Assembly (NCBI GenBank): GCA_001804285.1
Contig: MHFR01000068.1
Coordinates: 103,230-167,229, forward strand
DNA from: Candidatus Danuiimicrobium aquiferis
Lineage (GTDB): Bacteria > Omnitrophota > Omnitrophia > Omnitrophales > Danuiimicrobiaceae
DNA: 64,000 nt
Reading direction: 5' to 3'
Shown here piece by piece: positions 3,224 through 60,400 of the stretch (the first letter of the stretch is position 1; the number at the start of each line of letters is the position of its first letter). A program made the position numbers and the translations under genes. A model generated the notes under the pieces. That model was not told the DNA's origin. It searched no databases and worked only from the letters and a program-made list of their open reading frames with translations.

Positions 3224-3254
3224 TAAGATCAAGAAATTTTGTTAATTTTGTAAG

Positions 3255-4199: not shown

Positions 4200-4223
4200 A
4201 TCATATTTGACGAAGAGGGCACT

Positions 4224-4796
4224 ATGTCTGACGAAACGAATGAACTTAAAATAGAATCTTTAATCAAGGAAATGTTGGTTCAATTGGGAGAAAACCCGAA
4301 TCGTGAAGGATTGCTCAAAACGCCAAAGCGTGTTGCGGCCTCTTTCAAATATTTAACACGCGGGTATAGGCAAGATATTGATCAGGTGGTGAACGGCGCC
4401 ATTTTTCAGGAAAATTATGATGAAATGGTGCTCGTGAAAGAAATTGATCTTTTTAGTTTGTGTGAACATCATCTCCTTCCGTTTTATGGGAAAGTACATG
4501 TTGCGTATTTTCCGAATGGCAAAGTGATCGGACTGAGTAAAATCCCCCGGATTGTTGATGTTTTCGCCCAGAGGTTACAACTTCAAGAGCGGCTGACGAG
4601 TCAAATTGCAGACTGTCTGATGCATTATTTGAATCCCAAAGGGGTCGCAGTTGTGATTGAAGCTTACCATTTATGTATGGCCATGCGGGGGGTGGAGAAA
4701 AAGGATGCATTTTGTACGACGAGTGCCATGCTGGGTATGTTTCGCAAAGATCCGCGCTCGAGAGCGGAATTTTTGAATTTAATTGCGCGGAAATAA
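4224..4796 (+). CDS. folE: GTP cyclohydrolase I.
   Basis: It carries the FolE signatures [19 protein letters not shown] and [46 protein letters not shown]. Confidence 0.92.
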
Positions 4797-4815
4797 TTCT
4801 TAGGAAATCAACGGT

Positions 4816-5913
4816 TTATTGTTTTGTTTCTTCTTTTTTTAAATTTTCAATCTGTTTTTCAAGTTCTTCTACGCGTTTTTTGAGCTCCCTTACCGTTTGT
4901 GTTGTTTCTGCGATTCGGAGTTGTGCACCGACTTGTTTTCGCATTTCCTGATAAGGCCGGGCAGGTGTGCCGATCCATATTTGCTTGGGCGGGATTTTCT
5001 TTCCGGGCGGAACGCCGGATTCCGCTCCCAGCATGACTTGATCTCCGATTTCGACATGATCCGCTAAGCCGACACGGCCGCCCATGGTGACAAAATTTCC
5101 GACTTTCGAACTTCCTGCGATTCCGGTTTGAGCGGATAAACAACTGTGCTGACCGATCTCGACATTATGTGCGATTTGAACAAGGTTATCGATCTTTGTG
5201 CCCTTACCGATGATCGTTGAGCCGATCGTAGCGCGGTCGATTGTCACACAACCGCCGATTTCGACGTCGTCCTCAATAATTACATTACCTACTTGCGGAA
5301 CTTTTAAATGTTTTTGACCGTCAAAAACATAGCCAAACCCGTCTGTCCCAATCACTGTGCCCGCATGAATGGCAACGTTATGGCCAATCTTTGTGTTTGG
5401 ATATAGCACGACGCCGGGATGAATCACCGTATTTTTACCGATGGAAGTTCCTTCATCGATATACGAATGGGAGCGGATGACAGAATCCTCATCTATTGTC
5501 ACGTTTTCGCCGATATATGAAAATGGTTCAATCGTGACATTTTTACCGATTTTAGCGCTTTTAGCGATAAATGCTTGATTGGAAATGATTTTCGGAAATG
5601 TACGGGCTGGATTAAAAAGACCAAGCACAATAGCCCAAGCCACTTTTGGGTGAGGATGTTGGATAACAGGTTTTACGGTCGATTGAATTTCTGGAGGAAC
5701 AATTAAGGCCGCAAGACAGGTTTTCTCGATTTCAGATAGTTTTTTTGCATCCGTGATATAAGCAAGGCAACCTTCTTTAGGAGATTCAATGCTGGTGATG
5801 CCGATAATTTCGATATCACCATTACCGACAATGGTTCCTTTGATTAGGATAGCAATCTCATTTAATGTTTTTTCCATGAGGGACATTATAAAGGGCATGT
5901 TTCTTCTTGTCAA
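4816..5913 (-). CDS. lpxD: UDP-3-O-acylglucosamine N-acyltransferase.
   Basis: An N-terminal LpxD-type domain is followed by a long run of hexapeptide left-handed beta-helix repeats and a C-terminal coiled-coil tail. It is convergent with folE. Confidence 0.88.
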
Positions 5914-39400: not shown

Positions 39401-42400
39401 GTTTTGAGCAGGGAGAAAATGCCATATTTTCAGGAAGTGGTTCCGGGTTTTGAGTGGCGCACTACCGTCCGGGATTTTCTTACATTGCATTGGAACCGGA
39501 TTCATTGGCCCGTTGTTTTATATCGTTTTATAGGATCGGATCCGGGCCGTTTTTTATTTTCAGCGCCTGTTTGGTTCATGATCGGTTCCTTTATCGGAGG
39601 GCTGACTGTCGCCGCTGCCTTTGCCGTCATTGTCAGGTATGTCTTGCGGCCGCTCTATGAAGGCGTGCTGTTTAACTTGGAAGCCAAAGCGATGAAACGC
39701 TATCGCGCAATGGCGTATGAGCCTTTTCCATACGGCCCGCATTTTATTTTTCAAGGAGATGATCTTTGGCGGAATGTCCGTCAAACCTATTTTCAAAGTG
39801 AATCGCTGATGCTTCCTAATGAGAAAAGTAATTCAGTCTTGAAGCTTTATGCGTTGGAACATGTATTGAAAAAATATCCTGGAACAAGGAAATATCGCTC
39901 CATTGTCCGTCGAGTGCGTGAGAGATTGTCATCCTCGTCTGAGTGGCCTGATATTCATGATGCGTGGACGATGGTTCATAATGCTGCAGTGCGCCAACGA
40001 ATTCAGATGAGTGATCCGGGCGTTAAGCTTATTCTTTATGTTCTTGAATTACCGGTAAGAGCGCCGCCGGCGACAGAAGCCCAAAGTCCACAAGGAAGGC
40101 GCAATTTTTATCAGCGATTGGTGCTGTTGATCCGCCGTTTGATTTTGATTGCTATTCAAAATGCAATTCTTCAACCCTTCCGGATATTGAGATCGTCTGT
40201 CTACTCTTTGAATTTGCGCGCAACTGCCCGGTTGATTGAGAAAATCGAAAATCGCATTAAAGCGTTTTTTAAATATCCTATCCGGGAATATTCAAGTGAA
40301 ATGTTCTCAAGCCGCAGCAATACGCAGGTTAAGAGTGTCATGGGCCTCCCTGATGAAGAGAAACGAAAACAAGAACTCATTCAATACTTAAAACAATTCA
40401 ACATTTCCGAGCTTGATCCTTTGATTGCGGAAATAGATCAAAGGCTCCATCTGAAATTCGACCGGTTTTTTGACAAGGAATGGTTCTCTCAAGCATTTTG
40501 GAATACGTTAACGGGGAACAGAGTTGTTTCCAATAAGAAAAGGAAAAATAAGAGCGAGGAAGCTATTGCTGAAAAACTTAGAGTTTTAAACGCACAATAT
40601 GAGTTTGATTTAGCCAATCACACGGTACTCCTCAATACCGAAATGCCGCTTTTTCTGAATGCGTTCATTTTGGTCAAGTTGGCCTCTCAACTTTATCAAC
40701 ACCATGTTGTGCGCGGAGAACGGGAAAATATCCATCTTCCTCCCGAAGAGTTGGAAAGCATTCCGAAGAAAATGTTGATGAAACTTTTCTGGGATGCGTT
40801 TAGAAACGGTAAGAAATATTTTAGTGACACGAAACAGCCGTATATGGGCAACTTGGCGATTTTTATCCTGATGATGGTGAAAGCGTGGGGTTGTAAAGTT
40901 TACTCATCGAATGACAAGCCGGGGATTCTTTACATTAAAACACATCGCATTACGATGCGTGCCATGATCAAGGCTAAAGAAGGGTTTGTTATCGGGAGCC
41001 ATTATCTTTTAGGAAAACGTTATCTTGGGATTACAAATCAAAAAAATTATCCTTTGGCAGAAAAAAAACACGGAGTTAGCAAGAAATTAAGTGCCGTATA
41101 TTCTATCCTTAAACCATTTTTTCCGATCCTCTCACAATTTGCCTGGATGCTGGGCTATTTGACTGCGGTGGTTGCGCTATTTAGCGGATTTTTTCTGCAC
41201 CTTGATTTAAGTTTCGTGATGCACTATTTGGATCAACTTATTCAGTGGCTGTCCACCATTGATTTTTTTGATATTGGGCCGATGATTGCGGCGATCTGGC
41301 ATTCAATTCAATCTGCGTACCATGATCTTGCGGCTGCGTTCAGCCAGATCCTTCATTATTTATTCGATATTGATCTGACATGGCTGAAACAGTTTTTCCA
41401 TGACCTGTGGCAAAGCCTTGAGCCTGTCCGTGCGTTTGTTGAAGATTATCTGGTGCCGTTTTTTTATCAATTTCTCGTACCCGCCCTGATTTTTGGATGG
41501 GGAATGATTTCCGGATTTCTTGCTTATAAAGTGCAATTAAGACAAAGGTTAATTCAAGTGGGAGATTACTTTATCTCTTTCGGAGCTCCAAAGTTGATTG
41601 CCTGGTTCATAACGGTTCCCGCTGTAATAGCTGCAACAACCCTGAATTTGAATACGGATAAAATTTTTGAATTTCGGGAACGGATTGAATCCGCACTTCA
41701 GACGAAATACATCGTTAAACCATTAAGTTTGATTTGGCATATGTTGGCCAATCTATTGTATGCAGGTTCTTTTCTCTTCGGCGTTGGTCTTTACTTTTTT
41801 ATGATGTGGCTGATTATTGATCCACAGCTTGGATTGTCGGGTTTAGCGGGCGGATTGCAGAGCTTAGGTTTGCCGGTACCGCCGATTGTGTTAATTGCCT
41901 ATGTGGCCGGCGTTGTTAGTCTTCCTTTTTCTTTTGTGTATGTTGTCTCGGATTTATTGATGAAAAAATTACCGGAACGCGGATTGTTTTCGGGCCGGCG
42001 AACTGTGTGGGGAATGATTGCGTTTTTGGGCGTGTTTGCCGTGATTACGCCGGTGGCTTTGAATTATACATTTCGTTCAAATTGGATGCGGTCAGATTAC
42101 GTTGCGAAAGAAAAGGCCAGGACGCTTTATGCAAAGCCGAGTATGGTTTATCACTATAGTTTGATGGGCAAAGAAGAGGCAAAGTTGAAAATTGAAGAAA
42201 TGAAAAAGGAACAAACTCAAAAAATTGAAGAAGTGAAAAAGGAACAAACTCAAAAAATCGAAGCGTTTAAAGCACAAATAGAACAAGCAGCGAGTCAACC
42301 GGCATATCCGTCAACGATAAGCCGGTTTAAGAAAAAAATAGAAGAGTTTTTTAAGCAGGACGACAAGAAAAAAAAGGTGAACGCGGTTGAAAGCAATAAA

Positions 42401-45400
42401 ACCGCAGAAGATATGCAAGCCTTCGTCCATTTCTTTTTCGAACGATTTTATCGATTTCAGAAGTATAAGGGTATGGAAAATATTGTTGATCCGGAAAACG
42501 GCATCCTGCTGGTCAAGACTATAGACGAGTTGAAATTGCATAAACAGGATATTTTGACAGCGATACAAAATAAGAATCGCGCAGTATATGGCAATATGCT
42601 TTTTTGGGAAGGACTATTCCGAACATTTGCTGTAAACGGTCCTGGTTTTTATGATGCGTTTACACCTGACGAATGGAAAACCGTTCTCAATCATGTTTTT
42701 GATGTGTTGGAGGGGAAAGTGCATTATCGGCATTTTCGCCAGCGTTATTTTGAAGAGAGGAAAGCACTCAATGTTATTGATTATTTTCTGTGGGGTAATT
42801 TATCGAGCTTGCACCGATTGCATCTTTATTTTGAGGGTGTTGGGACGGTGAAAGGCGATTTTCAGAAAGTATCCATTCTCTATCTAATGATGGCTGATAG
42901 TCCGTGGGGGTATGTTTTCCCAAGTGCGGATCATTTTACCGTATTAGATCCCGATCGTTCGGGTCTATATCTATCATTTTTTGAAGATCCGTCGATTGCG
43001 GTGGGGATTCCGGAAAATCCTTGGGCAAAATCCAATTCTAAGGGGGGGCTTCCTACTGCAAAAGCACCGCGTGTTGCCGTAAACGTTTCACCGGAAATTC
43101 GGAGTTTAATGGTTGAAACGATTGAGCGCCTTGTCAAAACAAAAACAGGGGATCAAGATGTTCAGTCTTTTATTTATTCCAGAAACCTTTGGTTTAATGG
43201 ACACAATACTGCCGATTTTTTGAAATCAGATCTGTTAAAGCAGGCTGCTCCGGTGAGGCCGAAACCGCTCAGCACAAAACCTTACACAACAACCAAGCCG
43301 GCAGAACGATCCGGAAACGTTCAGAGCCAGGGGCGGGCTGAAGTGCGCAATGTCACGCCAAAAACGGGGACAGGTTCTGTATCAGTGAAACCAGAACCTG
43401 TCCCCGTTCTGGCGAGGGCTGAAACTCGCGACGAAGCGTTGGGAGGGCGAGTGAGCGTGAAGGAAGAAGATGTCTTTAAAGGATCGAAACTTCTTAAATG
43501 GCTTGGTGCCGCGTTTTGGGGGTTGGGTTGTGCGGCGTTTCTTTATGGCGCATACGGCGTTATTTCGCTTTCGGATCTTTTTGTTTCCTACTTGCCGGTG
43601 CTTCTTGAGGGCTGGCTTATTATTGGAACTGCCGTGCTTGTCAGCCATTACAAAAATCAGTTGCAATATTGGACGCGGCTTTCATTGATGACCGGTGCAA
43701 CCGTGTCCGTTTTCTTGCTCTTTCACAAACTCGCCGCTTACTACTGGCCGGTGTTTGGTTTGAATCCCGACATAAAGCTGTCAACAAGCATGATCGTCCG
43801 CTTGCCATCTATCTTTTGCGGAGTTTTTATCAACGAGTTGATTCGGGTAAAAAGATTTTTTAATTTCGAATTCAAATTAGGCTGGGAAGAAGCGAAGCCC
43901 CATTTTATCAAGGCATTTAAATGGGCGATTTCTTACGGAGCGATTACGGGATATTATTTTTATGTTGTTTTGTACGGCTTTATCGGACCGTATATTCCAC
44001 AGGCGAATTATTTTCCGATGATGACACCTGATATGGGGACGGCGATGATGAAAATGTTTTTTGACCTCGCGGTGACGACGCCCCTTGTCAATATTTGGAC
44101 CGTAAGTGCGGTTAGTGTGGCCTTCGGAGAAGAGGTGGATGTTGCCCAAAATTGGAGAAACCAGCTGGAGGGTTTTCTGTTATTTTATCCTTTAACATCT
44201 CTTTATTGGATGGTCGCGCTTTCTATATCATGGTTTCTCTTCCCGGATGGCCTGGATGGTTTTCAGGCCTCTCATGCGCTTTTTTCCACTCTTTGGCAGA
44301 TAGCATTGCCGGTATTTATTGTTAAGTTTTATATCGGAAACGGAAAACGCGGCAAGTTGACCGGTCAAAAGCCTGCTCCGGTTCCTCATCTCATATGGGA
44401 AAACCAATCGGTTTCCGCAATATCCCGCAGAGTGGACGTGCGTCCCAAGAACGCAAACACAGGAATTACGGTAAACCGCAGCCATCTTCGTGCTTTGGCA
44501 ATCAATATGGTATTTGCCGGAGGAGCTGTGGCGGATAAAGCGGCTCAATGGGCGCTGAGTAAAACATTGCCTGTAGCGGCGAAATTGCTTTGGCCCGGAA
44601 AACCGCGGCGATCAAAGACGTCAGACCGTTCCGAAGTTCGCAACAATGAAAATAATGCCAAAACGATTGTTGATCGAGGCGAACAAGAGTCCTCGATACG
44701 TAGAGGGCTTGTATCGAGGGCCGAAGCGCGGCAGGAGGAATATGAAGTCGCGAGTCAACCGGCGGCTCCACATATCAGGAATTTGAAGCAAGTAGTCACT
44801 GATGTTCAAACAGCGGTTTCCGAACTCAATATTCGCGGCCTGGAGGTTTTTGTTTTCGGTTCGCGGGCAAATGGGAAACCAAGGGATGGTAGCGACTTGG
44901 ATTTGATCGTTTTAGTTTCCGAGACCATGGATCAGGCTGCTGCCATGGCGATTATTTGGCAAAATGATGAAATTGAAAAACGACTTTCAGAAAAGCTTAA
45001 AACAAAAAGAGATTACCGTGTGCAATTTCACGATATTAATCCGGCAACCCGGCGGCACTATTTTTATTTGTGGAAGACTCGACAGTTTTTTAAAAAAAAT
45101 ACCTATCTTTGGTTTGTTCAGGCAAATTCAATTCAAGGGTTTGAATTGCATGCAGATGGAGTTGTTCCGGTGGATCTTGATCGACTGGAAAGTTTAACGC
45201 CGCTGCCGATCAATCTTGCGAACGATATAGCAGGCTTATCTCCTGAACAATCTCGGAGTGAAACGCGGCAAATGGGATTCGCAGAAGAGGACGAGGAAGA
45301 CTCTGACGATGACTTCATGCTCGATGGTGAAGACCTGGATATAATGCCTGGCGAATTTTCAGTGAAGCCCCAACCGCCTTCCGGGGCTGCCAATCAATTG

Positions 45401-48400
45401 AGTGGCGGCAAAGAAGAAAAAAATAAGGGAAAAAGATTTCCAGCGGCGCGTCCTGATGATTATCCCTCTCCGGTTCGATCCATCATTTCCAGTGGACTTA
45501 AAATTGACGAGGACACCTCGCTTCCTTCTGCCCGACGGTCCGAAGTTCGCCTCAAAAAAGATAGTACAGAAGCGATGCTTCATCAAGGCGCACGAGTGTC
45601 CTCGATACATCCCAAGGGGCCTGTATCGAGATCCGAAGCGCGCAACATTTTACAAAAAGGGGACAGGCATATGACTCCTATTGAACAATTGCCTGTCCCC
45701 TTTTTGACTGACCAAAGCGAACGAGAGTCCTCGCAGTTGCGGCGAGGGCCAAAGGATGCCGCTGCGAGGGCCGAAGTTCGGTCGGATTTCAACAACGCGA
45801 CAGATGAACAAATCATGACTGCGCTAAAACAAATCGGGTTATCCGAGCGGCAAACCCGGAACCTTTCCACTTATCTTTCGAAAATCAAACGCGTTTTGGC
45901 ATCGGGCCGGCGGTTTCGATCGCATGAAGAACTCCGCGTATTCATGGCGGGTGTTTTGGGGGTGCCTGAATTGGCGGCGAAATTCGCAGATCATTTCTTT
46001 GAAAAGTCTGCTTCTCAGCCTGCGGCAAAGCCCAACAAAGCTCCTTCAAAATCATTTCAATTTAATAGAACAGTTGAACAGGTGATCGGCAAGATGCCTT
46101 TTAGCGTGAATGTTTTGTCAGGTCCGAACAGGAAAAAACTTTATGACGGAAAATACGTTCCCAATGTTGTTCAGGTTGCCAGCCTTGGCGTGAGAGAAAG
46201 AATAGCAGCAAGGCACATCGTCTATTCTAAATTTCTTGATGTGTTGGAAGAGTATACACACCTGACAGAAGCAGAATTGCTTCATATGGGTTTTGTCTAC
46301 AGGCAGGGACCTTCATCTTTATATCTTTCAGAAGTGGTTCGTCCTATTCTCCAATCAACCGGAGCAAGTCATGAAGCGCAATCGGCTTTGGCTCCGGCTA
46401 TTCTGGAAATTGCCAAAAGCATGCGCGAAGCCAAAGCGCTCAGCGGGGATGAAGTGCTTAAAGCCATTTTTTCTAATTTGGGTGGGATCGATGGACAATT
46501 CAGCCAGCTCATCGCCTATTTGAACCACATTCAATTTAACAAAGGGAAAAATCCGCGGCTGAAAGTGCCGGATGAGAAAGTACAAGAAATAAAATCCATT
46601 GGTGAAGTGGAAGAGATAACGATTTGGTTTGTTAAAGCCGGGTTCCTTACGAGTGTCGCAATGGCAGAAGTTAAATTCAAAAGTAGTACAAATCGAGCGC
46701 CCATTCGTTTTGCGATTAATGTCGCTAACGATAGAACGATTTCCGCGGAGAAAGTGAGGAATGCATATCGTCATATGCGAGCTGATTATGATTTAGATTC
46801 CCGGTTTGTTGCTGAACCGATTGGGTTGGGAACCGAGATTGCGCCGGTGATCATCAGTGAGTGGGTCGAACAGAGTGACGAACTTCATTTGTATGCGGAT
46901 ACCGGATTTCAGCAATTCCAGGTTTGGAGCGGCCAAAATATGCACAACAACCAAAAAGTTTCGCTTCAGGACTCCCGGAAAATTTGGCGACAAATTATTC
47001 AGATACAAACGATGTATTCCGGGGTGAGGCCTGACGGTGCCGGGATGTCACGGCCATGGATCAATCGCGGGGATTTTGTGCTGACGCGTGATTCGCAAGG
47101 GGAACCGCGTGTTGTATTAATTTGGGATGACAGAAGTAATCTTGTTACGGGACAGAAGATTCCGTGGGACGCTATTGATAGCGTTGTCAACAGTTTGATT
47201 TGGGGGGAAGTTGACCCGGACAGCGGAAAATATATTTGGGCAGATGATCCGGAATTAGCGATTCGAGCGATTGAAGACGGGTATTTAGAGCATAGGCAAG
47301 ATAAGATGGAGGCGAAAGCTGAACTGATCGAAATTCTTAAGATGGTCTATAGAAATAGACTTCCTGAAATTATTAGGCAGCCTTCTGTCATTTCGGCGGG
47401 TTTTGATGATTTTGATCCTGCTGAACTGGATCATTTTATTTCTGTCGCTAAGCATGCACACAAAGTGCTGGGCGAATTTTTGCAGCAACGTTCTGAAGTT
47501 CGGGAAGAATCTTTTGCGGTTGACGGTGAAAAAGACCTCACCATTGAAGAAATCGATGCGCAAATGAAGACGGACGGCTTTCCGGAAATGGAATGGTTAT
47601 GGAAGACATTCAAAGGGATGAAAATATGGAAGGGCGTAAAACTCCGGCGTATCAACTTAGCCGATATTGATCCCGGAAAAATTCAAGAGATGCGCACCAG
47701 GCATATGGGCGGTTTATTGGCGCGTCCTTTGGTCATGGCTTTGATGTCGGTTTCCATTATGTGTATTGCACTGTCCGTTTTTATGCTTTCCGTTTCTGCT
47801 CTGCAAGATGTCATGCTTTCGCTGCAGGGCTATCCTGTGGGTGATTGGCATAGTTTCTGGAAGAATAATGTCGAACCGATTTTTCGGATGTTTCGCAATC
47901 CGCTGATATGGATGGCGCTTTTATTTTCAACGCCGGTGGTTTTTTTGCCGGCAACGGCAATCAAGCGGGCGTTTCTGCTGTCCTGGAAGAAAATTTCCGC
48001 ATTGGACCTTGCGTTTATGTTAAGCAAACGGAATTACCGGGAATGGTTCGAGCAGACGCCGGGGGCGCAACAAACGGTCGCCAAACTTCGCGGCATGGGA
48101 ATCAATGAAAACTTTGATAATCCTGATTATGCTCGCCGCTATCGCGCCACGACCAAAGGTGTTGTGGAAGTGCCGATTCCTGCTGTCCCCAACGTTCATG
48201 CCGTTCTGAAGGAGGTACTCGGGGAAGTGCGTGATGGAAAATACGAGCGGGGCAACTACACGACCAGTCTAAAACACGGAAGGAAATCCGTGACGGCTTT
48301 TGTCGCGCAGAATAAAAGGGAGGTTGAGCTCAGCAAGCCGCCGAGGCCCAGGTATGCGTGGCCTATCCCTACGTTCATCGGCTTGCTCATGGGTTTTTAT

Positions 48401-51400
48401 TCGATCGTTTATTTCCCGAGGACGCCTATGTGGGGTCTTTATTTGGTCGTGATGTCCATTATAGCGCCCGGAATATATTTTGTAAGTACTGCGCTTAACA
48501 TTGCTCCCGGAATTTTATATTACAAAAGAACGCGAACCTACTTGTCTCAAATCATTGCGGGAAACCGCCCCAAGTCTGGAATTGAAATTAACATGGAACA
48601 ATTGGGGATTAATGTTCTGGAATATGAAAAAGAAAAAGTGTATGAAAATCGCGAAGCAGGGACGCGAATTGTTATCAGAAATAAGAAGACATTGGAAGGA
48701 GCCGTTAAATTTTTAACTTCGAGTGAGGATATCGGCAACTGTATTGCGCTTCATAATTTTGTGTCATGGGTCCTTCCGACTTTACTTGATGATGATGGCA
48801 TTCAACTGGCCGACATCTATTTCAAAGGGACGCACGATGTTTATACTCATCGGGCCCAAATGTGGATGGTCGCGGCGCAGGAAAATGGGGTTCCCGTATT
48901 AACGGTGAATAGTTTTGAATTCAATAATGACGGTTCCACACACATTAACCGCTTAATGCCGGAAGCGATTAAGGCGTTACAAGATGTTGCGGTAAGGACA
49001 GGGTTCAAGAAGCACATTTATGTGGGAATTTCAGAATTTGGGCGCGAATATCTGGATAGTCATTTTCCCCAGGGCAAAACACAGAATGACATTGAAAAGA
49101 TTCATCATCCTGACGCCGGCTACAGATACTATTTCGATTCCTATGCGTTGAGGGGATTTCCTTGGGGCCATAGGCGATATGTGTTTTTGAAAGAGAGAAG
49201 TCTGACTAAACGAATTTACGCGGTTATCTTTGGCATCATTGAGGTGTTTAAAGGAAATTTTTCAAAGGCCAAAGCATTTATTAGCAGCGCAAAAAACGTT
49301 CATAATTTCTGGGAAATTCCGGTGGAGAATGCTGGCCAAGCCATTAAAGAAACTGAAGAGGCTCGTTCTGAAGTGAGAACGCAAAGGCTGCTGGATGATA
49401 TTGGCCAGAATTCCGGAGATATTGTTCAGCGTTTGCATGACAGCCAGATCAGATATTTGGAGAAACAGGGTGTTGAAAAAAATTTTCTTGAAAGAGTCTC
49501 AAGGCTGCCGGTCGATGAATTGTTTTCCGAAGCAATTAATTATTTATTGGCGAGGGAAATCAAAAAAACAGGGGTCCGGCTCCTTCCTCAAGCCGAAGAA
49601 ATAGTTGATTTCATTTTACGGCAGAATCTTCCCGTGTTGATGATGACAGGGACACCGCATGACTATGTGAATTTGAGAATTGCCCATCATCCTCTTGCTA
49701 AGCGGATAGCCGAAAGTGCGGGGATTTGGGGCGCTCATGAAGACGAAATTCGTATGGGTTATCCCGGTAATAAACTTGGCGGCATACGGGCCTTATCCAG
49801 GGATCCGAAATACGGGGCGGGAAGAATTCTGAGTATCGGTGACGGCGAAGCGGAGAAACAGGCGGCAAGCAAGACAGGGAATCCGTTCGTTTTGATTGAT
49901 CCTTTGGTGCAGGAAAATATGACCGCGGTGCTTCCCGAAAAACCCATGATCGTTCACGATCTCGCCCGGTGGCGCGAATGGCTTCCAAATTTATTGGAAA
50001 AGCAGAATATTAAAATTGTGGTTTTTGATTGGGATGGAACATTGTCTGACAGTCAGTCGGCCGTTGAAGAAGTTCAGACAAGGCTTCTTTACGGGATATG
50101 GAAAGGTTTCAATGATGAAGCTTTAGAAGAACCCGAAATCATAGCAGAACTTTATGAAACATCTTTTGGGAGAGAAGCTCTGCGGATGATGCAAAGTATC
50201 CGCGGACTTTCAGCGCAACGAAGTTTCAGCGAATATTTTATGCCGTTGCTGATCAAACCCGCCCGTGCCGAGGTTCGGGAAAATGAAAATGAGTTACCTG
50301 AGGTGCCTGAACCGCCATTAGAGTTGGAATTAACGGGGAGTGCTTCGGTTTCCGATGAGACAGTGATTCTTCCTCCTGATGTGACTTCTTCACAAGGTGA
50401 ACAGCCGGAAGATGTAAAATCGGCGGAAGATCAGGTCCGGTTTGAAGACGAGGTTATCGAACCGGATGGCCAGATAGATACTGAAAAGTTAAATATTCAC
50501 ACTGCGATCTACGAACCAACCGGGAGTGGCTTACTTGATGAAGTTGATGAACAACGGGAATCAGTGGCGCCCGGAAATAATGATACGGTGGTGTTGGCAA
50601 GCCCTGTTTTGGATTTGTCGGGCGATTTGCCTGCGACATCGTTGAATATTGAAAATTTTATTAAAGCAGATCTTAAGCTGGGGATGCTTTCCGACAATTT
50701 AAAACAGTATGAAATTAGACATCATCAATCGGATTGGCTGATTGAACATGAGATTCGTGTGGCGGTGCTTGTGTTTCAACTCGGCAAACAATTGAAATGG
50801 GATCCGGACGAGTTAAGAGAACTTGTTTTTGCCGCGAGATTTCATGACATCGGAAAAACCGATTCGTCTATCAATCCGCTTATTGTTAATAAACCGGAAG
50901 CATTGACGCCATCTGAGAGAGACTTGATGCGTCGGCATCCGCTTTATGGCGCCAGGATTCTGGAAGAAGCCGGTGTCGATTCCAAACAGATTTTAGATGC
51001 GATGTATATGCATCACGAGGCGCTCGACGGAACGGGTTATCCGAGCCAGCTTAAAGGAGATTTGATTGATCGGGGCGGAAGAATTCTAAAAATCGCAGAT
51101 TCATTTGACGCAATGGCATTTGCCCGCCCTTATTCACAGCCGAAATCGCTCGAAACCATTTTGAAGGAATTAGAATCCGACCGCGGTTCACATTTCGATC
51201 CGGATTTGGTTAGGGAATTTGTGAAATTGGAAACTTTCCCCGCAGGTGGACGTGCCGAAGTACGTGACATGACGCCCAAAACTGGGACAGGCAATCGTTT
51301 CCTTTTCATTGGATTGTCAGACCAAAAAGGGGACAGGCATATGACTCCTGTTGAGCAATTGCCTGTCCCCTTTTTGACTGCCAAAGAGCTTGTATCAAGG

Positions 51401-54400
51401 TCTGAAGCGCGGCAGGACCATGTTGCAGATGAAATAAGGGCTGAGTTCCAAACTATCGTAGCTGTCGCGAAAGGGAAACCGAAAAGAATCAAAGGATTGA
51501 GTTCTATTGTTGATTTTGAAAGCGGACGGCTCAGGGCCAATTTCCCGAGGCCAATCGGTGATACCGTTGGAAAGACGAAAACGATCGGCCCCGTCAAAAA
51601 CCTTGCTGATTTGGAACTTGAAATTTTCAACCTTGCGACCGGCGAATTCCGGATGGATTTCTATTATAAGAAAACCGGTGAGAAGAAATTTGAGAAGGAT
51701 CCTTTGAGGATGTATTGGGTTCCTGAAAAGAAAGCGTTTCTTGTTGAGCGTGAATATCAGCTGGAAAGAGTCAACGCGGCTTTCCGCCGGCTGCGCGAAA
51801 CGAAACAAAAGGGTACTGAAGAAATCAGAGAAACAATAGGTGACATTAGCGCGTTTATGAATTTACAGGTTGGTGGCACTCCGGAAGCATTTCAGACGCC
51901 GGATGGCGAGTCCGTGGAAAAACCATTTTTTACCGGTGCGGGTGTCGATCTCGACAGGATGTCGCTTGTGATTGTCAAGGAATCGCAGGACCGCTATCGG
52001 TTGGAATTTGGTTATGTGTATACGGTTGAGGATGAAGAAAGCCATGAAAAAATAAAAAAAGAGGGTATTGCGGTTGTCTTATGGGAACGAAACAAGAAAG
52101 CAGATGATTATAAAGGCTACATCCGCCGAAAAGATAAACAAATTGAAGAACTTCGGAATGCGTTCAAAGAATTATTAAATCCCGCATTGCCGGTTGGTTC
52201 TGCCCGCGATATAGAGGATGTGCGGGAGCTTTTTCACTTGCCGACGGGCCTCATGCAGATCGCTTTCCCGACACCCGACGGAGGAAATATTGGTGGCGGA
52301 AAATCTGAAGAGGAAGGCAGGAGAGGCATCGGGGCGTCTGCGGACCTGGAATTTATTTCGGCGCGTGTTGTTAAAACGGCCGATGAACAGCTGCGGGTTG
52401 ATTTTTATTATAAGACTCGGAAAGACAAAATTATCCGCGAGGAACCGGCAAGCATTGCTTGGGACGGACTCAGTTACATATTCCCATCGGATGACATGGG
52501 GTTGACGGACAAGGAATTTCGCATGCGTGTTCTCAAAGGGCGTATTCTCGAAGAACTTTTATATCGATTTTTTGCGAAAAAGCAGAGCGACACAATGTCA
52601 TCCTCCGGCTTGACCGGAGGATCCATGGATTCCCGCTTGCGCGGGAATGACAGAGGATCGCGGATAGAATTCGAAAGAGAGTTTCTTGTAGATGAGTTTA
52701 CGAAAGAGTACCGTTACCCGACTTTTTTTGTGGAAGGTGAGTTTGTCGGCGCCTGCAAATGGGGTCGCAGCGCACATAGCATTGTTGAGACGGTCCTGAA
52801 ATTATCCCGGCTCCAGAAGTTGAGCGGGCGCACGGAGCCCATTCGGTTGATTGTGTTTGATGCCGCGAAAGTGGACGAAGCCATGGAGGCGCTCAGAGCT
52901 ACGCAAATCAACGGAATTCCGTACGAAATTATTCCTGCCAGTGAGTTGCTGAAACGGACCGGCCCGCCGAATGGCGATGCTGTTTCGATGCTCGAGACAT
53001 TAAAGGATGTCCGTCAGAAAGAGCTTGCAGGCGATGAAACAGGTCTTGAGAAAATGTATGCGTCGTTACGTGAAGAAAGTGGTGCTCCGGTCCGCCGTTA
53101 CAAAAAAGGGCTTCAACTTCAGCATGAGGCCGACTGGCAAAGTCATTTGATCAATCATTATATCGAGGAAGGGCCGGAGAAAATTCTTTCTGTGCTTGAT
53201 TCCATTCAAGAACATCAGTCCCCATACTGGGAATGGGCCTACCATTTGCGCTTAATTGCGTTTCTTTCTTATTTGTATCAAAAAGTTGAAGACGGCCGCG
53301 TGAGAAAGCGGATTCTGGAAATTTATCCTGATATTGAAAAAGATCCCGGCGCATGGCAGAAGATCGTTCAATATTACAAACTGCGGGAATATGGCCCCGA
53401 CGCCGAGGCGCGGATTCATGCGCTTATTCGGACGCAAGAACTCGATGAGAGTGAAGACATAGAAGAGGCTGAAGAAGTTCCGGCGCCCGCGGCCGAAAGA
53501 AAATCGCGGATGACTCATGCGGCTGCGTTTGATTTTGGAAGGTTTGAAGTGACCGTTGATCGAACGATCAGCCGGCAGATGAAGCGGCACCACATCACTG
53601 ATTTAGATAAGGCCGTTCCGGCGGTCGATATGGCAGTCACGCCGGATGTCAAGGCTGCCACACTTTTGGAGACCATTGCCGAATTCCGGAAGTTATTTGC
53701 AAGAGTGACCGACCCTTACGACCCCTTCCAGCGGATGAGCCTCTTTTTGTCGCAAAAGAAGGAAGACCTCAAAGATATTCCGGCGGCCGAGAGGCATGCT
53801 TTGTTACGGCAAGTTGTGCAGGCGTTTGTCATGTATTTTATCGATGTGAAGCGGTTTAATGACAGCCGGTATAAATTTTTTACGGGATATAAAGGCGGTT
53901 TGGGGAATGTCGGATTCGGGGACTTCTTACGGTCTCTTGATGCCACCGGCAATCTTATTTTGGTCGAAGATGATTTTGGGCCCGGCGTGAGCGGCTCTCG
54001 TTTGTTAAACGAATTCGAAACCTTTGCCAAAACGCTTGGTATCCCAGTCCCTCGTCTAAGTTTCGATCCGCATGCAGCTGCAGCTTCGGGAAATGTTCCG
54101 ATTCCGGCAGCTGTTTTCTTTGCTGATGAAATTATCCGGAGAGCCGATCGCGGCAAACTTGTAAGAACACCGGAGGATCGAAGGGTGATCCTCGATTTTA
54201 TCGGGGCGATTAAAAGCGATCAACAGCGAGTGGTTAAACTTGCGGCGGCGGCAAAAGGCGGAGTCAATACGAATCAAGTCGGTTTTAATGAAGCGGTGGT
54301 CAAAGATCTCCACGATCAAGTAAAACGGACAGGACCTCAAAGTTTTCCCGAGAAGTTGGAAGAGAGAATCGTAAAGTTTGCTCAAGGGATTATTCAAATA

Positions 54401-57400
54401 TTTTCGCATGAAGGGTTGGCGCAGCCTTCGATGTACAATGCGGCGAACAATGCTTTGGATCTCCGGGTGAAAAACATAGCGCGCATGAAAGAGCTTCTGC
54501 ATGCGATTCCTCAGGATGAAATTGATGAGAAGGAACTGGAAATTCTTCTCCAGGTTTACATTGCGTCTGTCTCGACGATCTTCGGGGTGGCGTTTGGAAA
54601 AGCCTGGGACCGGGAAGATTTCGATCAACTAAAAGTACTGCTTGACGGCAAAGGGATTATTTCACGAAAAGTACTGGATCAGCTTGGTGCGGAGGGAAAT
54701 GTCCGGCCTGTCAAAGAAGCGATCCCGATCGCCGCGCTCAATGAAAGGTCCTTTGAATTTTCGCTTTCCTATTTCTTTCCCGAATTATCACCCGAACGCG
54801 TTTTGCATCTCGCGGTTTTGGGTTACGAGCTTTTTGATCGCATTGCCCGGGAAAACGTGATCGCCAACCGCACGTATGATGCCTGGCTGCTATTGAATAT
54901 GGTTTCAAGCCGTTCCTTTGATTCAAACAAAAATGTGAGAAATCACAGGGGGCTGATTAACAACCGTTTTCACACCGCGCCGATGGTTAAGGCGCTTGAT
55001 GATCTTCACGCCTGGCTGAAAAAACAAAATATAGATACCTCAACGGTAACGTATCCATTTTCCGGAACGGATTTGACCACAGCGCTTTTACTGACGGATG
55101 CATCAACTATCAGAATGTATGATGCGCTTCCGTTTGGAATGGATATGAATCCGCGTGACTATGAAGCCTATAAAATTTCCTATGTCGCGCATAAAGCGGC
55201 AAGCGGAATTATTCTCGACAATGTGGCGAGCGCGATCGGACACGCAAAAACGCCGCTCTTATGGGAGCTCGAGGCGATCGGGGCAAAAGACATTAAGATC
55301 GAGTTGGACGATGAAGACGTGAATATGTACCGCATTCATTTCAAATGGGCCTACGACAAAGATTCCCCTCTCAAGGAGCGGGTAATTGAATACCGGGAAT
55401 GGATTTTTGAAGAGCAGGAAGACTTTGACGGGGCCGTGGATCCGAAACGCGATACCGTTTATTTGCATAAAGGAACGATGGCAAGCGGGATTTATAGTTC
55501 CAAACTTCCGAACGTGATTATTTCTTTCGGCGGTGAGACCGTCAAGGGTTATCAAAAGATTCCGGTAAAGCGGATTATCCAAATTCCGGACCCGAAAAAG
55601 TTGGCGCCTGCCCACACATTCCGGTATCCCCAAATTTCGGAAGCGGCTGTGCTTATCAAATCAAAAGTTCCCCTTGAGCTTGCTTTACGCCCGGAAGAGG
55701 AAGAGGGAATTCAACCGCTGACAGCCGAGGAAAAGGACGCGATCCAAAAAAGCATTTCAATTTCTAACGGTGTCGCTGAGGTTTTGCGGGAAGACAAAGG
55801 AAGTATTTTGTTAACGGGTGAAACCGATTCGGCCCATCTTTTTGGAAAACGCCTGCAGTATCGCCAGATACCGGATGATTTAAAAGTTTCTGCGGTTCCG
55901 GCCGAATTGTACAAAGGCAAAAATGTTTTGGTGGTGCCCGGATATGGAAATCTTCCGTTCACATTAAAAGAATTGGGCGCCAGAAGTGTTGTAGCCATAG
56001 ATAAAGATCCGGGTGTTATAGCGTGGCAGCGAGCCAAACAGATTTACGCGGGCGATCCTTCAGTCCAAGCGATGAACCGCGATGAGGCCAAAGATCCGAA
56101 TGAATCACTGGAACGGCTTCACGAACTGGTCATGACGGACGCTGAGCCGATTGAGCCTGTGGACGGAATCCGTTTTGCAGCTGCTGATCTGACAGAAAGA
56201 CTACCGATTGAAGACGACAGCATGGATTTGATTGTCGTTCCTTATTTGTTTGGATTTGAGCGCGGGATTACGACGGTGGATGGTTTCGAACGCGGCCTTG
56301 CCGAAATTTTGCGCGTCGCGAAGCCGGATGCTACGATTATCATTTTGCCTTCCGGACTTTCAGACGAAGCGCAGTATGTGAAGGGAAGTAAACTTCCTGA
56401 ATTTTGTCGCTGGCTTCGGGCACAGCAGGGATTAGTCATTCAGGAAAGCGCGCCAATCCCGCTCTATAATTATTTAGATGATCCGGCACGGCAGACTACG
56501 CCGCCGCTCGGCCATTACGCGGCGATTTCCAATCAAGGGCCTTCTATTTTTTATGGAGACACCTACGGAAAGTTAACGCCTTCTGCAGGATCCTTTTTCA
56601 GGTCATTAAATCAGGAAATCGGCGGCTATCACAGCAAATTTCCGCAATATTACCGTGACCACATTGCAAACAGCCATGGTCAGATTCTGAAAGGTGCGGA
56701 AGGCTTGTCAGGGATGGCTGTGGTGCTGGGCCTCGGGAATGGAATCGATATTCCGTTGAAATTGTTGGCAAAGCAGTTTGACCGCGTCATTGTAATTGAT
56801 TTAGACGCGGAAACGGTGAAACAGACCGTGGCGAAATTGGACGAAAATCTGCGGCGCAAAATCGAAATCAGGGTGGACGACCTTTCCGGGATTCTGCCGG
56901 AATTCTCGCACGAGGTGGATAAAATTGTAGCAGAGGCTCCGAGTCCGGAGTCGGCGAGGGAACGCATTCTATCGTTGGCGAAATCGATAGAAATCAGGAA
57001 GAACGCTCTGGCGGGCGTTAAAGCATCTTATGTTACGTCGTCTGTTGTTCTTTCACAGCTTATTTTTACTGCGCATCAATATGCGGTGGATCAAATGCGA
57101 AAGCGGTTTAGCGTTGATGAATCGTTTCTGACCAGCTTTCTGGATTATCGAAAAGCATTCTTGTATGACTTAATGGTCAAGGTGGCGTCTCATTATTTGA
57201 GCAGCATTCATGGAACTGTTCAGCCTTCCGGACGTGTTTATTTTGCGGACGGGCTTCACGAAACACCCGTTGAGGAAAATGCTATAGGCGTCAGGCGCGG
57301 GCTTGCTCAGCCTGAGCCAAAGATTCCGGTTACGGTTTTTGAACTGATCGAACAATGGTTTACAAGGGACATTGCTCAGCACACGTATTGGGTGTGGGAC

Positions 57401-60400
57401 AATAAACCGCCTAAAGTAACCCAAGATCACAAGGGCTCTGTTTTGCAGGAAGTAAGCGATATCCTTTTGCCGAAACCCGCGGGCAGAACACAAACGACAT
57501 TGATCTATTCGCCTCCGGGGGGTGTTGATCGCAGCAGTGATCCCGCTTGGCAGAGTCTTAAGAAGAAAGCTGATTTGTATATTCATCTTTGGGACGAGCC
57601 GCTGGTCAAGAAATTTCAGCGTTTGAAACCGGAGCGTCTTGCGCCGACGGGCCGGAATTATTCTCATCATGACTATTCGCCCAATGTTTTTGGGGCGGAA
57701 GAAGAGAGAATCCATAAAGAGGCCATCCGGTATACGGAGAAAGGCGTGACTTTTTCAGAGGATTTTCAAGGCTCGGCCTTTGTTCTCATGGAACCGGGCG
57801 AAAATGATGTGATAGCGACGGCCATTGAACAGCCCGGTTTTGATGATCCTGAGATTGCTTTTATCGGAGAGAAAAACGGAAAATTAGTTGTCGGCGGAAC
57901 GCAATATTTTAATCCATTGTACTACCGGTACGATGACTTTCTGAAATTTCTATTAACAATGATTCAGGATCAGGGGATCCAATTGAAAGGACTCATGATC
58001 GGACATGAGGATTCGCCGAAACAGGATAACGCTGCCCGGCATTTTGTTGAAGAAGTGACTCGAATGGGAATTCCAACTGTCAGTTTTCCGCCCAGAAAAG
58101 AACCCGGTACGATTTTAGTGACGAAAGAGGGGATTGCGCGGCTTCACTTCAAAAAACGGGAGCATGCCCAGACTGTGCGAGGACCGAAAGCGGATCAAAG
58201 CGATGCTCGTTTGGAATTAGAGGTGGATCGATCGGCTACGGATCTCCGTTTGTGGAAAGATTTATTTCCTGAAGAGAAGACTTCTGACACACAACCGGTG
58301 AAACGTGACGTCTCGGGCGATGATTTGGTCAGAAAACGTTATTTGGAACTTCTCGATGACATGGAAAAAAGATTAGCTGAGCCGGTTGAATCTGAGAAGA
58401 CGTTACAGGCGCGGCTGGTCCGGGATGAAAATGAATTATCGCTTCGCGTGACCTATCAAAGAGAAGATCGCGTGTCTCATGTCGTTGTACGGTTTGATCG
58501 GCAGAAAGAGAAGGCGGAGGTGCGCGGATTTGCGGAATTGGTCGGTGAAGAGGACGTGACAGCCGCCGGAGTTAGAGGACGCATTGGCGTTCCGCTCGGT
58601 GAAGTGGATATTTTAGCGGCACGATACCGATTTGAGGGGGAAGTATCCCTGAGTGAAAGTGAAAGCAATTTTCGTAAGGGTTTAATGGACATCCTTCGGG
58701 CTGCAAGAGTAAAGGTGCTGGCGCATCTCTATCCGGAATTATCCCGCCCGCAGGATCGAACGGTAAAAGACAGTTCAGAACAGCCGAGATATCCTGTGCC
58801 TGGGAAAGAAGAAATCATCGAATTTTATGAAAAGCATGGCGATGATGGTTTTATCTATTTACCAAACGGTGCAAAGGTTCCGGTCGGAATTTATCAGCTG
58901 GATGACAAGACGCTGACGTGGTACCGGGGTTTGATTAATGAGTTCGGAAGGAATCTTAAAATTCTTTCCTTGGGTTCCGGCCGCGGAAAATTGGAATCAT
59001 TGCTCAAAGAAGACGGTCATCAAGTGACGGCCGTCGATTTAAGTCCTAAGAATGCGAGATACGCCGAAAAAGTGGGAGTTGAAACCGTCCTTGCCGATGC
59101 ACATCACCTGTCGCTTCCCGAAAAGGATTATGATTTGGTGATCGTTGTGGATTCTCTTGGTCAAATGGATCCGCCCGTCATTTTCCAACGGGCCAAAGAG
59201 CATCTCAAGGCCGGCGGATGGCTCTTTGTGACGATGGTGAGAACGGAAGCGAAACAGACACGGGAGGGATACGAAGTGACCAAATATATTCTCTACCCCC
59301 GGGGGTATCTCAATCATGAACTCACGAAAGCCGGTTTTGCCCCGACGTCAGAAGGGATGCTTCCGACGTTTGGTGATCCGCGCGGAATTACGTTTGAGTA
59401 TCACAATGCCGTGTATCAGCCTGCCCGTTCCGAAGCGCGGGCGCTTAAGCCGTTTTCCAACCTTTTTTGGTGGAGGAGTGAAAGCAATAAAAGGTTGAGA
59501 GAAGTGAAACATCAATGGAGTCGCCTTGAGCGGTTACTTATCAAGAAAGGAGCTAAACTTCAGGTTCAATTGGCGAGTTTTTGGCATGAAGAAGGCGAGC
59601 ATACGGATTTGCCGGATATGGATGTTTTGGCAGTGAAAAGTCTTTACAGCGGAACTGCTTTTGCGAGCTTTGAACTGCCGCAAGGCGCAATTACACATTT
59701 TTTGAAGGACGAAGAAACCTCGCTTGTCGCGAGGGGAAATCCGTTTTGGGCAAAATTTATGAGAGTCGCGAATGAAACTGTTTCTGAAAAAATGTTTGGG
59801 GTTGACGATTTTCGGGAAGCGTGGCGGACATTGAGAAGGTTGCGGCTCGAATATCGAAGGAAGGAAAAAAAGGAGCCGGTGCCTTTTAAAGTCAATCTTG
59901 CCGATCCGGTCATTTCCTACCGGAGTCTTGGTGTCGAATCAGATGGTTCAATTCGTCGCGATGATTTATTTGATTACTTAAAGCTCTCCGATAAACAAAG
60001 AGAGGAATTGGCCAGATATAAGATCGTCGAGATTTCTTCCGAGCAAAATCCGTCGGGCCGGGGAAAACTGATTTTATATTATCCCGTTAGCGCGGAAACG
60101 AAGAAATTAATCGAGAGGATCAAATCGCGATATAAAGAAGATTTGCGACAGCTTGGTTTTGCGGGCGGAGAAGCGGCGGATGAATTTATTCTTGAGCAAT
60201 TTCTTACGCCGGTGTTGATTGCTTTACGGGATGTGGTTCAAGTCCGCAAGCTTGCGGATGTGATTGCGCGGTATTTAAATGAACAAGGCAGTTCGAAAAT
60301 GCCGAAGGAGATGAAGGTCGTTCATGTCGGCGGGCTTTATCATTATCGAAGCTTGCAGAAAATTCTGGAGGCAACGGGGCTTTTCGAAGACGGATTGGTT

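Follow-up and report, generated by a model that had tools for sequence, protein, structure and literature searches.

The window analyzed here, a 64,000-nucleotide stretch of DNA from Candidatus Danuiimicrobium aquiferis (Omnitrophota), carries a single giant open reading frame (ORF) from position 36419 to its end, and within that ORF lies a genuine HD-GYP domain, as established by profile, fold and residue comparison. The metal-binding and catalytic core of this domain is intact, and from its sequence the domain is apparently competent for catalysis. As an enzyme type it is ordinary, a divergent addition to a well-known family, and it stands out only through its setting. The giant ORF starts with an ATG and continues past the end of the window, the stop-free frame spanning positions 36410 to 64000 (9,197 codons); a gene is called at 36419 in the source record MHFE01000007.1 (GCA_001805325.1), to which the window was assigned by an exact protein match of a neighboring gene, with a product of 15,706 residues. 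Residues are numbered from the ATG at 36419, the window holding residues 1 to 9193 and the remaining 6,513 lying outside it; statements below on the content of the giant protein refer to residues 1 to 9193. The Pfam domains found on this chain were NTP_transf_2, HAD, HD_5, Methyltransf_11 and TPR. The host is known from the neighboring proteins, which are named after Ca. Danuiimicrobium aquiferis, or Omnitrophica bacterium RIFCSP..., in NCBI and UniRef.

Translation of positions 50714 to 51240 (+ strand) yielded one open peptide of 175 residues, the first of which is residue 4766, in agreement with a preliminary description of this DNA that had placed an HD-GYP signature about 4,760 residues into the giant protein. 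The ordered motifs that it had listed (H, FHDIGK, RRHPLYG, HHExxDGxGYP and KIADSFDAMAF) were all found in the translation, each exactly once, and the reverse strand of the same segment was full of stops. The profile search that it had suggested matched Pfam HD_5 (PF13487) over its full length (profile positions 11 to 170 of 170; E value, 3.2e-32; 112 bits versus a cutoff of 27.2), and Pfam HD (PF01966) was also recognized (58.7 bits versus a cutoff of 22). Membership in NCBIfam equivalogs was rejected, since the NosR-family phosphodiesterase model scored 91.7 bits against a cutoff of 400, and the HDIG model scored 27.3 against a cutoff of 27.6; in both cases the similarity is at the domain level only.

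Comparison with known structures gave the same picture. A phmmer search against the PDB sequences returned V-cGAP3 (5z7c, 6.7e-24), PmGH (4mcw, 2.3e-23), DvhD, PA4781 and Bd1817, all of them HD-GYP proteins. The domain is part of a module comprising residues 4621 to 4944, bracketed by two copies of the pentapeptide RAEVR. With 39 homologues as input, AlphaFold2 gave for the whole module a model that had block-mean predicted local distance difference test (pLDDT) values of 82 to 95 over module residues 161 to 320, and values below 50 at module residues 1 to 89 and 95 to 111, which are predicted to be disordered. When this model was compared with the PDB by Foldseek, the top 15 matches were all HD-GYP domains (DvhD, PmGH, PA4781, Bd1817 and V-cGAP3), and PgpH, an HD enzyme without the GYP motif, ranked after them.

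Active-site residues were studied in an alignment of the 39 homologues, whose overall identity is 25 to 35%, and by alignment to 4mcw. All seven core metal ligands, which lie in invariant columns of the alignment, were present: H4777, H4809, D4810, H4840, H4865, H4866 and D4894, the counterparts of H189, H221, D222, H250, H276, H277 and D305 of PmGH. Substituted metal ligands, or a better score to a noncatalytic HD-related family, would have spoken for another assignment; both were looked for and neither was found. The family residue was also kept at every further invariant column (K4813, E4867, G4871, G4873, Y4874, I4883, R4903 and Y4905) and at the nearly invariant D4870, P4875 and D4897. 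K4813, Y4874, I4883, D4897 and R4903 are equivalent to K225, Y285, I294, D308 and R314 of PmGH, respectively. The GYP loop, extended to the conserved isoleucine, reads MHHEALDGTGYPSQLKGDLI and contains E4867, D4870, G4871, G4873, Y4874, P4875 and I4883. In PmGH, alanine mutants of K225 and D308 are inactive, and the tyrosine of the GYP motif (Y285) hydrogen-bonds the substrate phosphate (PMC4159591). The maintenance of the active-site residues despite an overall identity of 25 to 35% argues for continued selection on the active site.

Three positions differ from PmGH, and they were examined in a wider comparison of 353 profile-aligned HD-GYP domains from all the proteins retrieved, 241 of which retain all the ligands plus K225. 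The position of D183, the proposed general acid of PmGH, whose alanine mutant is inactive (Bellini et al., PMC4159591), is occupied by Ser4771, with Asp4772 adjacent to it; the 241 intact domains have Asp here in 184 cases, His in 22 and Ser in 20. The position of E185, which binds the third metal in PmGH (PMC4159591), is occupied by Trp4773; here the intact domains have Tyr in 186 cases and Trp in 8. A Glu or Asp at this position defines the trinuclear E/D-T-G subfamily, and an aromatic residue defines predicted binuclear enzymes that usually stop at pGpG (Galperin & Chou; PMC4159591). Trp4773 thus assigns the domain to the Tyr/Phe/Trp-type subfamily, which is predicted to be binuclear, and, given the lack of an equivalent of Glu185, a binuclear rather than a trinuclear center would be expected, and the reaction would probably end at pGpG and not at GMP.

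The third position concerns the substrate. In PmGH, R314 and K317 form an RxY[K/R] motif that reads guanine; K317 contacts guanine O6, and the K317A mutant retains most of its activity (PMC4159591). Here the arginine is retained and Ser4906 takes the place of K317, a position at which the 241 intact domains have Arg (175), Lys (23) or Ser (7); in addition, the KPG motif reads KPE. Gln or Asn at the lysine of RxxK shifts specificity toward cyclic GMP-AMP (cGAMP), and the RxxS enzyme HdgA of S. venezuelae still hydrolyses cyclic di-GMP (c-di-GMP), according to a personal communication in Galperin & Chou. The serine at the K317 position is a source of real uncertainty about the substrate. Given Ser4771, Trp4773 and Ser4906, specificity for c-di-GMP and full activity are plausible and not assured. 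The signature of a c-di-GMP phosphodiesterase given in the preliminary description thus stands with regard to family, fold and ligands; it did not cover the D183, E185 and K317 positions, which are Ser, Trp and Ser, respectively.

The pair Ser plus Trp recurs, as K-S-P-W-T-x-G-H-S-E-R-V, in a coherent subgroup of proteins with all the metal ligands intact. This subgroup is among the most similar matches (41 to 43% identity), and its sampled members are HAMP-PAS-, HAMP- and PAS-GAF-linked HD-GYP proteins; other close matches of the domain are GGDEF-, GAF- and SBP-linked. Since intact sensor-linked proteins have the S-x-W loop as well, it would be a feature natural to a subfamily and does not speak for inactivation.

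The position of the module within the protein was analyzed with a Kyte-Doolittle scan, which detected an N-terminal signal-like segment and approximately 15 to 20 transmembrane (TM) helices clustered up to residue 4030. The last four form two hairpins, and many Lys and Arg residues are found in the segments that connect and follow them. Between residues 4031 and 9193 no convincing TM segment was found by this hydropathy scan, with one borderline candidate at residues 6040 to 6061. The HD-GYP domain thus lies more than 700 residues beyond the last predicted TM helix, inside a TM-free stretch of more than 5,000 residues that also holds a HAD-like module, S-adenosylmethionine (SAM)-dependent methyltransferase domains, TPR repeats and a Bud32-like kinase signature; a nucleotidyltransferase domain sits in the preceding soluble region. 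The basic residues behind the last helix (positive-inside rule) suggest that the following stretch is cytoplasmic, and the methyltransferase, nucleotidyltransferase and kinase-like domains, which use cytoplasmic cofactors, support this location. The stretch carrying the domain is therefore most simply read as cytoplasmic. The preliminary description had spoken of an envelope protein, which fits the membrane-anchored chain as a whole but not the module, given its distance from the membrane helices and the probable location of its surroundings.

HD-GYP domains are classed as intracellular signal transduction output domains fused to N-terminal sensors. In the module, the usual place of the sensor is taken by an acidic linker of 140 residues, predicted to be disordered. 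No Pfam or NCBIfam family matched it, and the alignments of the homologues were limited to the module's C-terminal half. The domain has more than 10,000 residues behind it and is consequently in midchain and not C-terminal. The module has a G+C content of 0.455, and both this and its codon-position profile are the same as those of the neighboring modules, so that a recent foreign insert (or a sequencing artifact) was rejected. A separately expressed gene was likewise rejected, since no promoter- or terminator-like site was present on the + strand between 49300 and 51600, as was an internal start, the only ATG in the module (50685) having no spaced Shine-Dalgarno sequence.

We infer from these data, with moderate confidence, that the module is an active binuclear HD-GYP phosphodiesterase that would act on a cyclic dinucleotide, by default converting c-di-GMP to pGpG, on the side of the membrane that faces the cytoplasm, either tethered or released. 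The identity and fold of the domain, its intact core, the boundaries of the module and its absence from the closest related giants are established here, whereas catalytic activity, substrate, cytoplasmic location and the tethered or released state are inferences. The module would hang on its acidic disordered tether inside the cytoplasmic multienzyme part of a membrane-anchored protein. If tethered, it could serve as a local membrane-bound sink for the messenger beside the other enzymes of the giant protein; if the pentapeptides that bracket it are processing sites, it could be a soluble enzyme of about 36 kDa. As context for a link with c-di-GMP, GGDEF and pilZ have already been tied to Omnitrophota giant genes in the literature, and none was seen in the window.

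Several observations weigh against this interpretation. Asp is found in 39 of the 39 close homologues at the position of Ser4771, for which Asp4772 may or may not compensate, and Ser4906 is infrequent at its own. There is an insertion of two residues behind HDIGK, and the next conserved Gly and Asp and the Pro of Ile-Pro are lost. The HD_5 score is below the 128 to 161 bits of most close relatives. An exhaustive HMMER search with residues 4316 to 5500 against 1.84 billion representatives revealed no orthologue of the module, the best match being 46% identical. No REC, GAF, PAS, HAMP or DUF3391 domain was found at the module with Pfam and NCBIfam, and GGDEF, EAL and PilZ were not found in residues 1 to 9193 or in the 26 upstream ORFs. 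The topology derives from a simple hydropathy scan of residues 1 to 9193, with 6,513 residues outside it. Finally, the neighboring HAD module looks rearranged, which suggests that some modules of the giant ORF may be relics.

An active phosphodiesterase with a preferred substrate other than c-di-GMP, such as 3'3'-cGAMP or another cyclic or linear oligonucleotide, is an unlikely alternative to the c-di-GMP enzyme that we favor. Ser4906 lies where Gln or Asn shift specificity toward cGAMP, KPG reads KPE, the top PDB sequence match is the cGAMP-specific V-cGAP3, and GGDEF and PilZ were not seen within the window; however, Arg4903 and Tyr4874 are retained, the RxxS enzyme HdgA is reported to hydrolyse c-di-GMP (personal communication), the K317A mutant of PmGH retains most of its activity, and GGDEF and PilZ are generally associated with Omnitrophota giants. 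Less probable still would be a catalytically dead or very slow domain acting as a c-di-GMP receptor or protein interaction module with a regulatory input, as in DvhD, RpfG of X. campestris or HnoD. Inactive HD-GYPs with regulatory roles are well documented, the c-di-GMP-bound receptor DvhD was the top Foldseek match, changes are seen in the loops that follow HDIGK and precede the final ligand, and Ser replaces a residue, D183, whose change to alanine inactivates PmGH. Nevertheless, residues of HD or HHE are missing from the forms known to be inactive or receptors, whereas every metal ligand is intact here, and the same Ser occurs in 20 of the 241 ligand-intact domains, including the coherent subgroup of sensor proteins.

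Improbable, in our opinion, is that the module is an evolutionary passenger, a cassette that a mosaic giant gene has picked up and that now has little function or none. The giants P0138 and P0139 share the adjacent block of approximately 2,250 residues (47 to 48% identity) and have no HD-GYP anywhere, the upstream HAD module has its C half before its N half when compared with the tandem HADs of P0184, and dispersed palindromic repeats populate the linkers. Yet at least 27.6 kb of reading frame is uninterrupted, all the catalytic residues are retained despite a divergence of more than 50% from any relative, and the composition matches that of the host gene. It is very doubtful that the module lies outside the cytoplasmic membrane, in a cell surface "coat" where it would hydrolyse environmental or prey nucleotides. 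Such a location would agree with the signal-like segment, with the approximately 15 to 20 TM helices and with the proposal that Omnitrophota giants are surface coats acting on prey, but the basic residues after the last helix and the alternating basic loops fit an inside location, the neighboring domains need SAM or nucleoside triphosphates, HD-GYPs are classed as intracellular output domains, and their Fe2+-dependent chemistry is sensitive to oxidation (Galperin & Chou).

Table 1. Features of the giant ORF and of the HD-GYP module (positions are those of the window)
Feature	Position	Strand	Residues	Remarks
Giant ORF	36419..64000	+		Intact frame plus gene call in MHFE01000007.1
Last predicted TM helix before the module	48428..48508	+	4004-4030	Followed by YYKRTRTY; Kyte-Doolittle
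Junction RAEVR	50264..50278	+	4616-4620	Opens the HD-GYP module
Acidic proline-rich linker	50279..50698	+	4621-4760	34 Asp+Glu, 6 Lys+Arg, 12 Pro
HD-GYP domain	50717..51238	+	4767-4940	Pfam HD_5, AlphaFold2 pLDDT, Foldseek
N-terminal loop S4771-D4772-W4773	50729..50737	+	4771-4773	Ser at PmGH D183, Trp at E185 (third metal)
His4777 in IEHEIRV	50747..50749	+	4777	First metal ligand (PmGH H189); invariant column, 4mcw alignment
FHDIGK	50840..50857	+	4808-4813	Ligands His4809 and Asp4810; Lys4813 equivalent to PmGH K225
RRHPLYG	50930..50950	+	4838-4844	Ligand His4840 (PmGH H250)
MHHEALDGTGYP	51008..51043	+	4864-4875	Ligands His4865 and His4866, then Glu4867, GYP loop, Tyr4874
KIADSFDAMAF	51089..51121	+	4891-4901	Asp4894 ligand (PmGH D305); Asp4897 structural (D308)
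RPYS, variant of the RxY[K/R] substrate motif	51125..51136	+		Arg4903 retained; Ser4906 for guanine-contacting Lys/Arg
Junction RAEVR	51251..51265	+	4945-4949	Closes the module soon after the last helix of the domain
In-frame perfect palindrome AAAAAGGGGACAGGCA-N17-TGCCTGTCCCCTTTTT	51325..51374	+		Linker after the module; translation QKGDRH..LPVPFL
Junction RSEAR	51398..51412	+	4994-4998	Opens the next block, conserved in related giants

The pentapeptides that bracket the module belong to a recurrent motif, R[AS]E[VAT]R, found at 19 sites in the visible giant ORF (window 38339-61213) versus 0.074 in shuffles. It did not occur in the 10,837 residues of the other ORFs, and the 19 sites in the giant reading frame compare with at most 1 in any other frame. 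No pentapeptides are more frequent in the giant protein than RAEVR and RSEVR. At each of its five positions the motif is written with varying codons (Ser as TCN or AGT and Arg as CGN or AGR, for example), a variation that speaks for a constraint at the peptide level. Located at module boundaries, the sites are candidates for junctions or for processing.

Short recurrent motifs were also present in related giants, each with its own. In the exhaustive search, P0138 (5,942 residues) and P0139 (7,439 residues) matched only the block downstream of the HD-GYP module. BLASTP aligned residues 5109 to 7345 with one block of each of them, and this conserved block lies between RSEAR 4994 and RSEAR 7670 of the giant protein. 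HD-GYP was absent from P0138, P0139 and seven other long relatives when searched with a regular expression and with profiles. P0138 and P0139 contain 8 and 10 copies, respectively, of a repeat [SA]GFG[AV], and the block that these two have in common begins about 5 residues before one such motif and ends at another (1917-4204 versus motifs at 1922 and 4202 in P0138; 2888-5183 versus 2893 and 5181 in P0139). For their part, P0184 and P0142 have 11 copies each of [RK][ASPT]E[VALIMT]R, of the same class as R[AS]E[VAT]R, and ASSLG occurs 6 times in P0144. Given the absence of the module from the closest giants and the junction peptides at the boundaries, the HD-GYP module would be an accessory cassette beside a conserved core, in mosaic giants with lineage-specific junction peptides.

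A further, rather unlikely possibility is that we are dealing with a bacterial polyprotein or cassette array, encoded by the giant ORF, in which the junction peptides are sites of module exchange, of cutting or of both, and from which the HD-GYP cassette is released. If so, the RAEVR-bracketed HD-GYP would be freed as a sensorless phosphodiesterase of about 36 kDa with an acidic tail. The pattern of junction motifs and cassettes, a hypothesis based on six proteins, is a more novel lead than the HD-GYP domain itself.

Other searches returned no further giants with this module. A word-indexed protein search with the module gave only ordinary HD-GYP proteins of 215 to 452 residues, a scan over one genome per species (GTDB) gave only an unrelated HD-GYP of Solirubrobacterales (37% identity) and did not recover the source contig, and the long matches of the exhaustive search (1.2 to 2.0 thousand residues) were classic GAF/GGDEF/HD-GYP signaling proteins and not giants. 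The end of the window and the conserved core block, used as queries in word-indexed protein searches, gave nothing, or only a 99%-identical fragment of 887 residues (P0137), and a scan of Joint Genome Institute metagenome contigs with the last 499 residues of the window gave only weak kinase-like matches (23 to 26% identity).

Some neighboring modules also deserve description. The HAD-like module upstream of the HD-GYP module (49379-50263, residues 4321-4615) consists of a C-terminal half followed by an N-terminal half with DWDGT, relative to the tandem HADs of P0184, where whole HAD units have the junction motif between them; the order looks like the result of circular permutation or like what is left after truncation. 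Downstream, positions 51413 to 52500 (residues approximately 4999 to 5350) encode internal repeats of about 110 residues with the motif FPTPDG ... RxDFYYK, without family matches; 4 to 12 copies of this unit were present in the other long proteins P0140 to P0144. An N-terminal domain of about 600 residues (window 36419-38338, residues 1-640), behind the signal-like segment, is common to the giants P0144 and P0141; it is 26% identical to P0144 over 608 residues, and the motifs HxxxH...EG and ITGGFH are shared with both. Its annotation as a protease was rejected, the sole match being a weak one to DUF5694 (E value, 0.026). No protease domain was detected elsewhere in residues 1 to 9193 either, and Pfam revealed neither SecA-DEAD nor peptidase domains there.

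The linkers between modules contain several families of repeats. The palindrome that follows the HD-GYP module (Table 1) belongs to a family, D2, with copies at 38369-38431, 45653-45715 and 51323-51385 and a short copy at 37400-37436, all of them stop free and in frame. The copies are 76 to 94% identical to each other and, within the window, are confined to the giant ORF. The RNA of positions 51241 to 51430 (190 nucleotides), which includes the palindrome, folds with -79.3 kcal/mol (z = -5.0), and a search of the linkers with Rfam at gathering thresholds gave no known RNA element. The D2 palindromes resemble either bidirectional terminators or a dispersed repeat that lies within coding sequence. 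Relics of intergenic terminators were rejected, given the identity among the copies and their absence from the 36 kb of ordinary genes upstream, and the linker palindromes thus look like a dispersed repeat rather than terminator relics.

A second family, of 74 to 108 nucleotides, occurs at 38425-38493, 44627-44736, 45536-45648 and 61106-61218 and has an internal palindrome, CCTCGATAC...GTATCGAGG. It is bounded at both ends by a codon block of the junction motif (RSEVR ... RAEAR), in a manner reminiscent of an element flanked by a duplicated target. Short in-frame hairpins, ATTCCCGC-N4-GCGGGAAT, were found at 37283-37339, 38582-38623 and 52625-52660, and are translated as SFPQKRESR..DPHFRGDD, GHAGMT and MDSRLRGNDRG. 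Such peptide strings are typical of a widespread palindromic repeat that appears in many spurious ORF calls; here, the hairpins lie within a genuine ORF.

Upstream of the giant gene (window 1-35617) lies an ordinary gene set of 26 ORFs, nearly all on the + strand and none of them a c-di-GMP gene. It includes a surface polysaccharide cluster with a Wzy_C ligase-like protein, glycosyltransferases of GT1, GT2 and GT4, a carbamoyltransferase, an ABC exporter and an LpxD-like protein. The other genes encode a LysM amidase, FeoB, protoporphyrinogen oxidase (heme synthesis), AsmA/YhdP and Lpd, together with RNase T, a helicase, a PMT_2-like protein, Dus and a cupin.

Giant ORFs are common in Omnitrophota (Seymour et al., PMC10066038; West-Roberts et al., bioRxiv 10.1101/2023.11.21.568195), and it has been proposed in the same studies that they form surface coats and act on prey. 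West-Roberts et al. found GGDEF domains within many of the giants, with small pilZ genes lying immediately downstream, and suspect proteolytic processing at cleavage points that they state to be unknown. Nielsen & Lui (bioRxiv 10.64898/2026.06.07.730766) described a "multi-enzyme" class of giants (class 1) and a Pfam co-occurrence module 1 comprising methyltransferase PF08241, HAD and "HD-domain regulators," and they read the giants of module 1 as anchored in the inner membrane with their enzymes in the cytoplasm. Neither Nielsen & Lui nor West-Roberts et al. mention HD-GYP, phosphodiesterases or c-di-GMP degradation, and neither describes recurring junction pentapeptides; c-di-GMP, linkers and cleavage are likewise absent from the account of Nielsen & Lui.

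The occurrence of an intact HD-GYP within a giant suggests that such proteins can incorporate the breakdown of the messenger as well as its synthesis; if they do, they may be under local control by c-di-GMP. Surveys report GGDEF inside giants and pilZ beside them, but no degrading enzyme, and the module adds a candidate for that role. The cassette array or polyprotein, if real, would supply the "cleavage points" that West-Roberts et al. call unknown. Furthermore, a well-understood enzyme that is simple to assay and is bracketed by junction motifs makes a clean test object for whether the giants work as one chain or as cut pieces, a question left open by both giant-gene papers.

Among the characterized HD-GYP proteins, PmGH from Persephonella marina (GAF-HD-GYP, 4MCW/4MDZ), an active c-di-GMP phosphodiesterase, has the same fold as the domain described here (Foldseek E value, 1e-10; 32% identity) and shares with it the seven core ligands and the equivalents of K225, D308, Y285, I294 and R314. 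Unlike PmGH, the domain has Trp4773 for Glu185, Ser at the D183 and K317 positions and no GAF sensor. V-cGAP3 of Vibrio cholerae (5Z7C), specific for 3'3'-cGAMP and the best PDB sequence match (E value, 6.7e-24), is of the binuclear type with Tyr at the E185 position, but it is a tandem HD-GYP with a degenerate N-terminal domain and is only about 25% identical over the core aligned by Foldseek. The best structural match was the HD-GYP of DvhD from Desulfovibrio vulgaris (9RBZ), a c-di-GMP receptor (Foldseek E value, 1.2e-11; target-normalized TM-score, 0.79), which lacks the HD dyad (NLSQVGK for HDIGK) and one His of HHE, whereas our domain retains both.

The closest matches overall (45 to 46% identity) are P0204 (GGDEF-HD-GYP) and P0228 (SBP-HD-GYP), which are sensor linked and in which the KSPWTxGH loop was not demonstrated. 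The proteins with this loop, P0220 (HAMP-PAS-HD-GYP), P0226 (HAMP-HD-GYP) and P0254 (PAS-GAF-HD-GYP), are uncharacterized metagenomic proteins, 41 to 43% identical to the domain, that share Ser and Trp at the D183 and E185 positions and have their ligands intact. Most proteins with the loop retain Arg or Lys at the K317 position, in contrast to the Ser found here, and proteins of the P0220, P0226 and P0254 type are 370 to 720 residues long with a C-terminal HD-GYP behind their sensors, whereas the module is in midchain in a protein of 15.7 thousand residues. Nor does the module fit the architecture of RpfG, PmGH and Bd1817, in which a C-terminal HD-GYP follows an N-terminal sensor or receiver.

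At the level of the whole protein, the similarity is to the Omnitrophota multienzyme giants and the Archaeovorin type, with which it shares a length of more than 10,000 residues, a signal-like N terminus with TM helices and many unrelated enzyme domains. The Archaeovorin type of West-Roberts et al. has SecA-DEAD-like and GGDEF domains and a downstream pilZ, none of which was found in residues 1 to 9193. Methyltransferase PF08241, HAD, HD, nucleotidyltransferase and TPR occur on one chain, as in module 1 of Nielsen & Lui. The giant protein fits the multienzyme class of Omnitrophota, and its HD-GYP domain refines that entry of the catalogue and overturns nothing.

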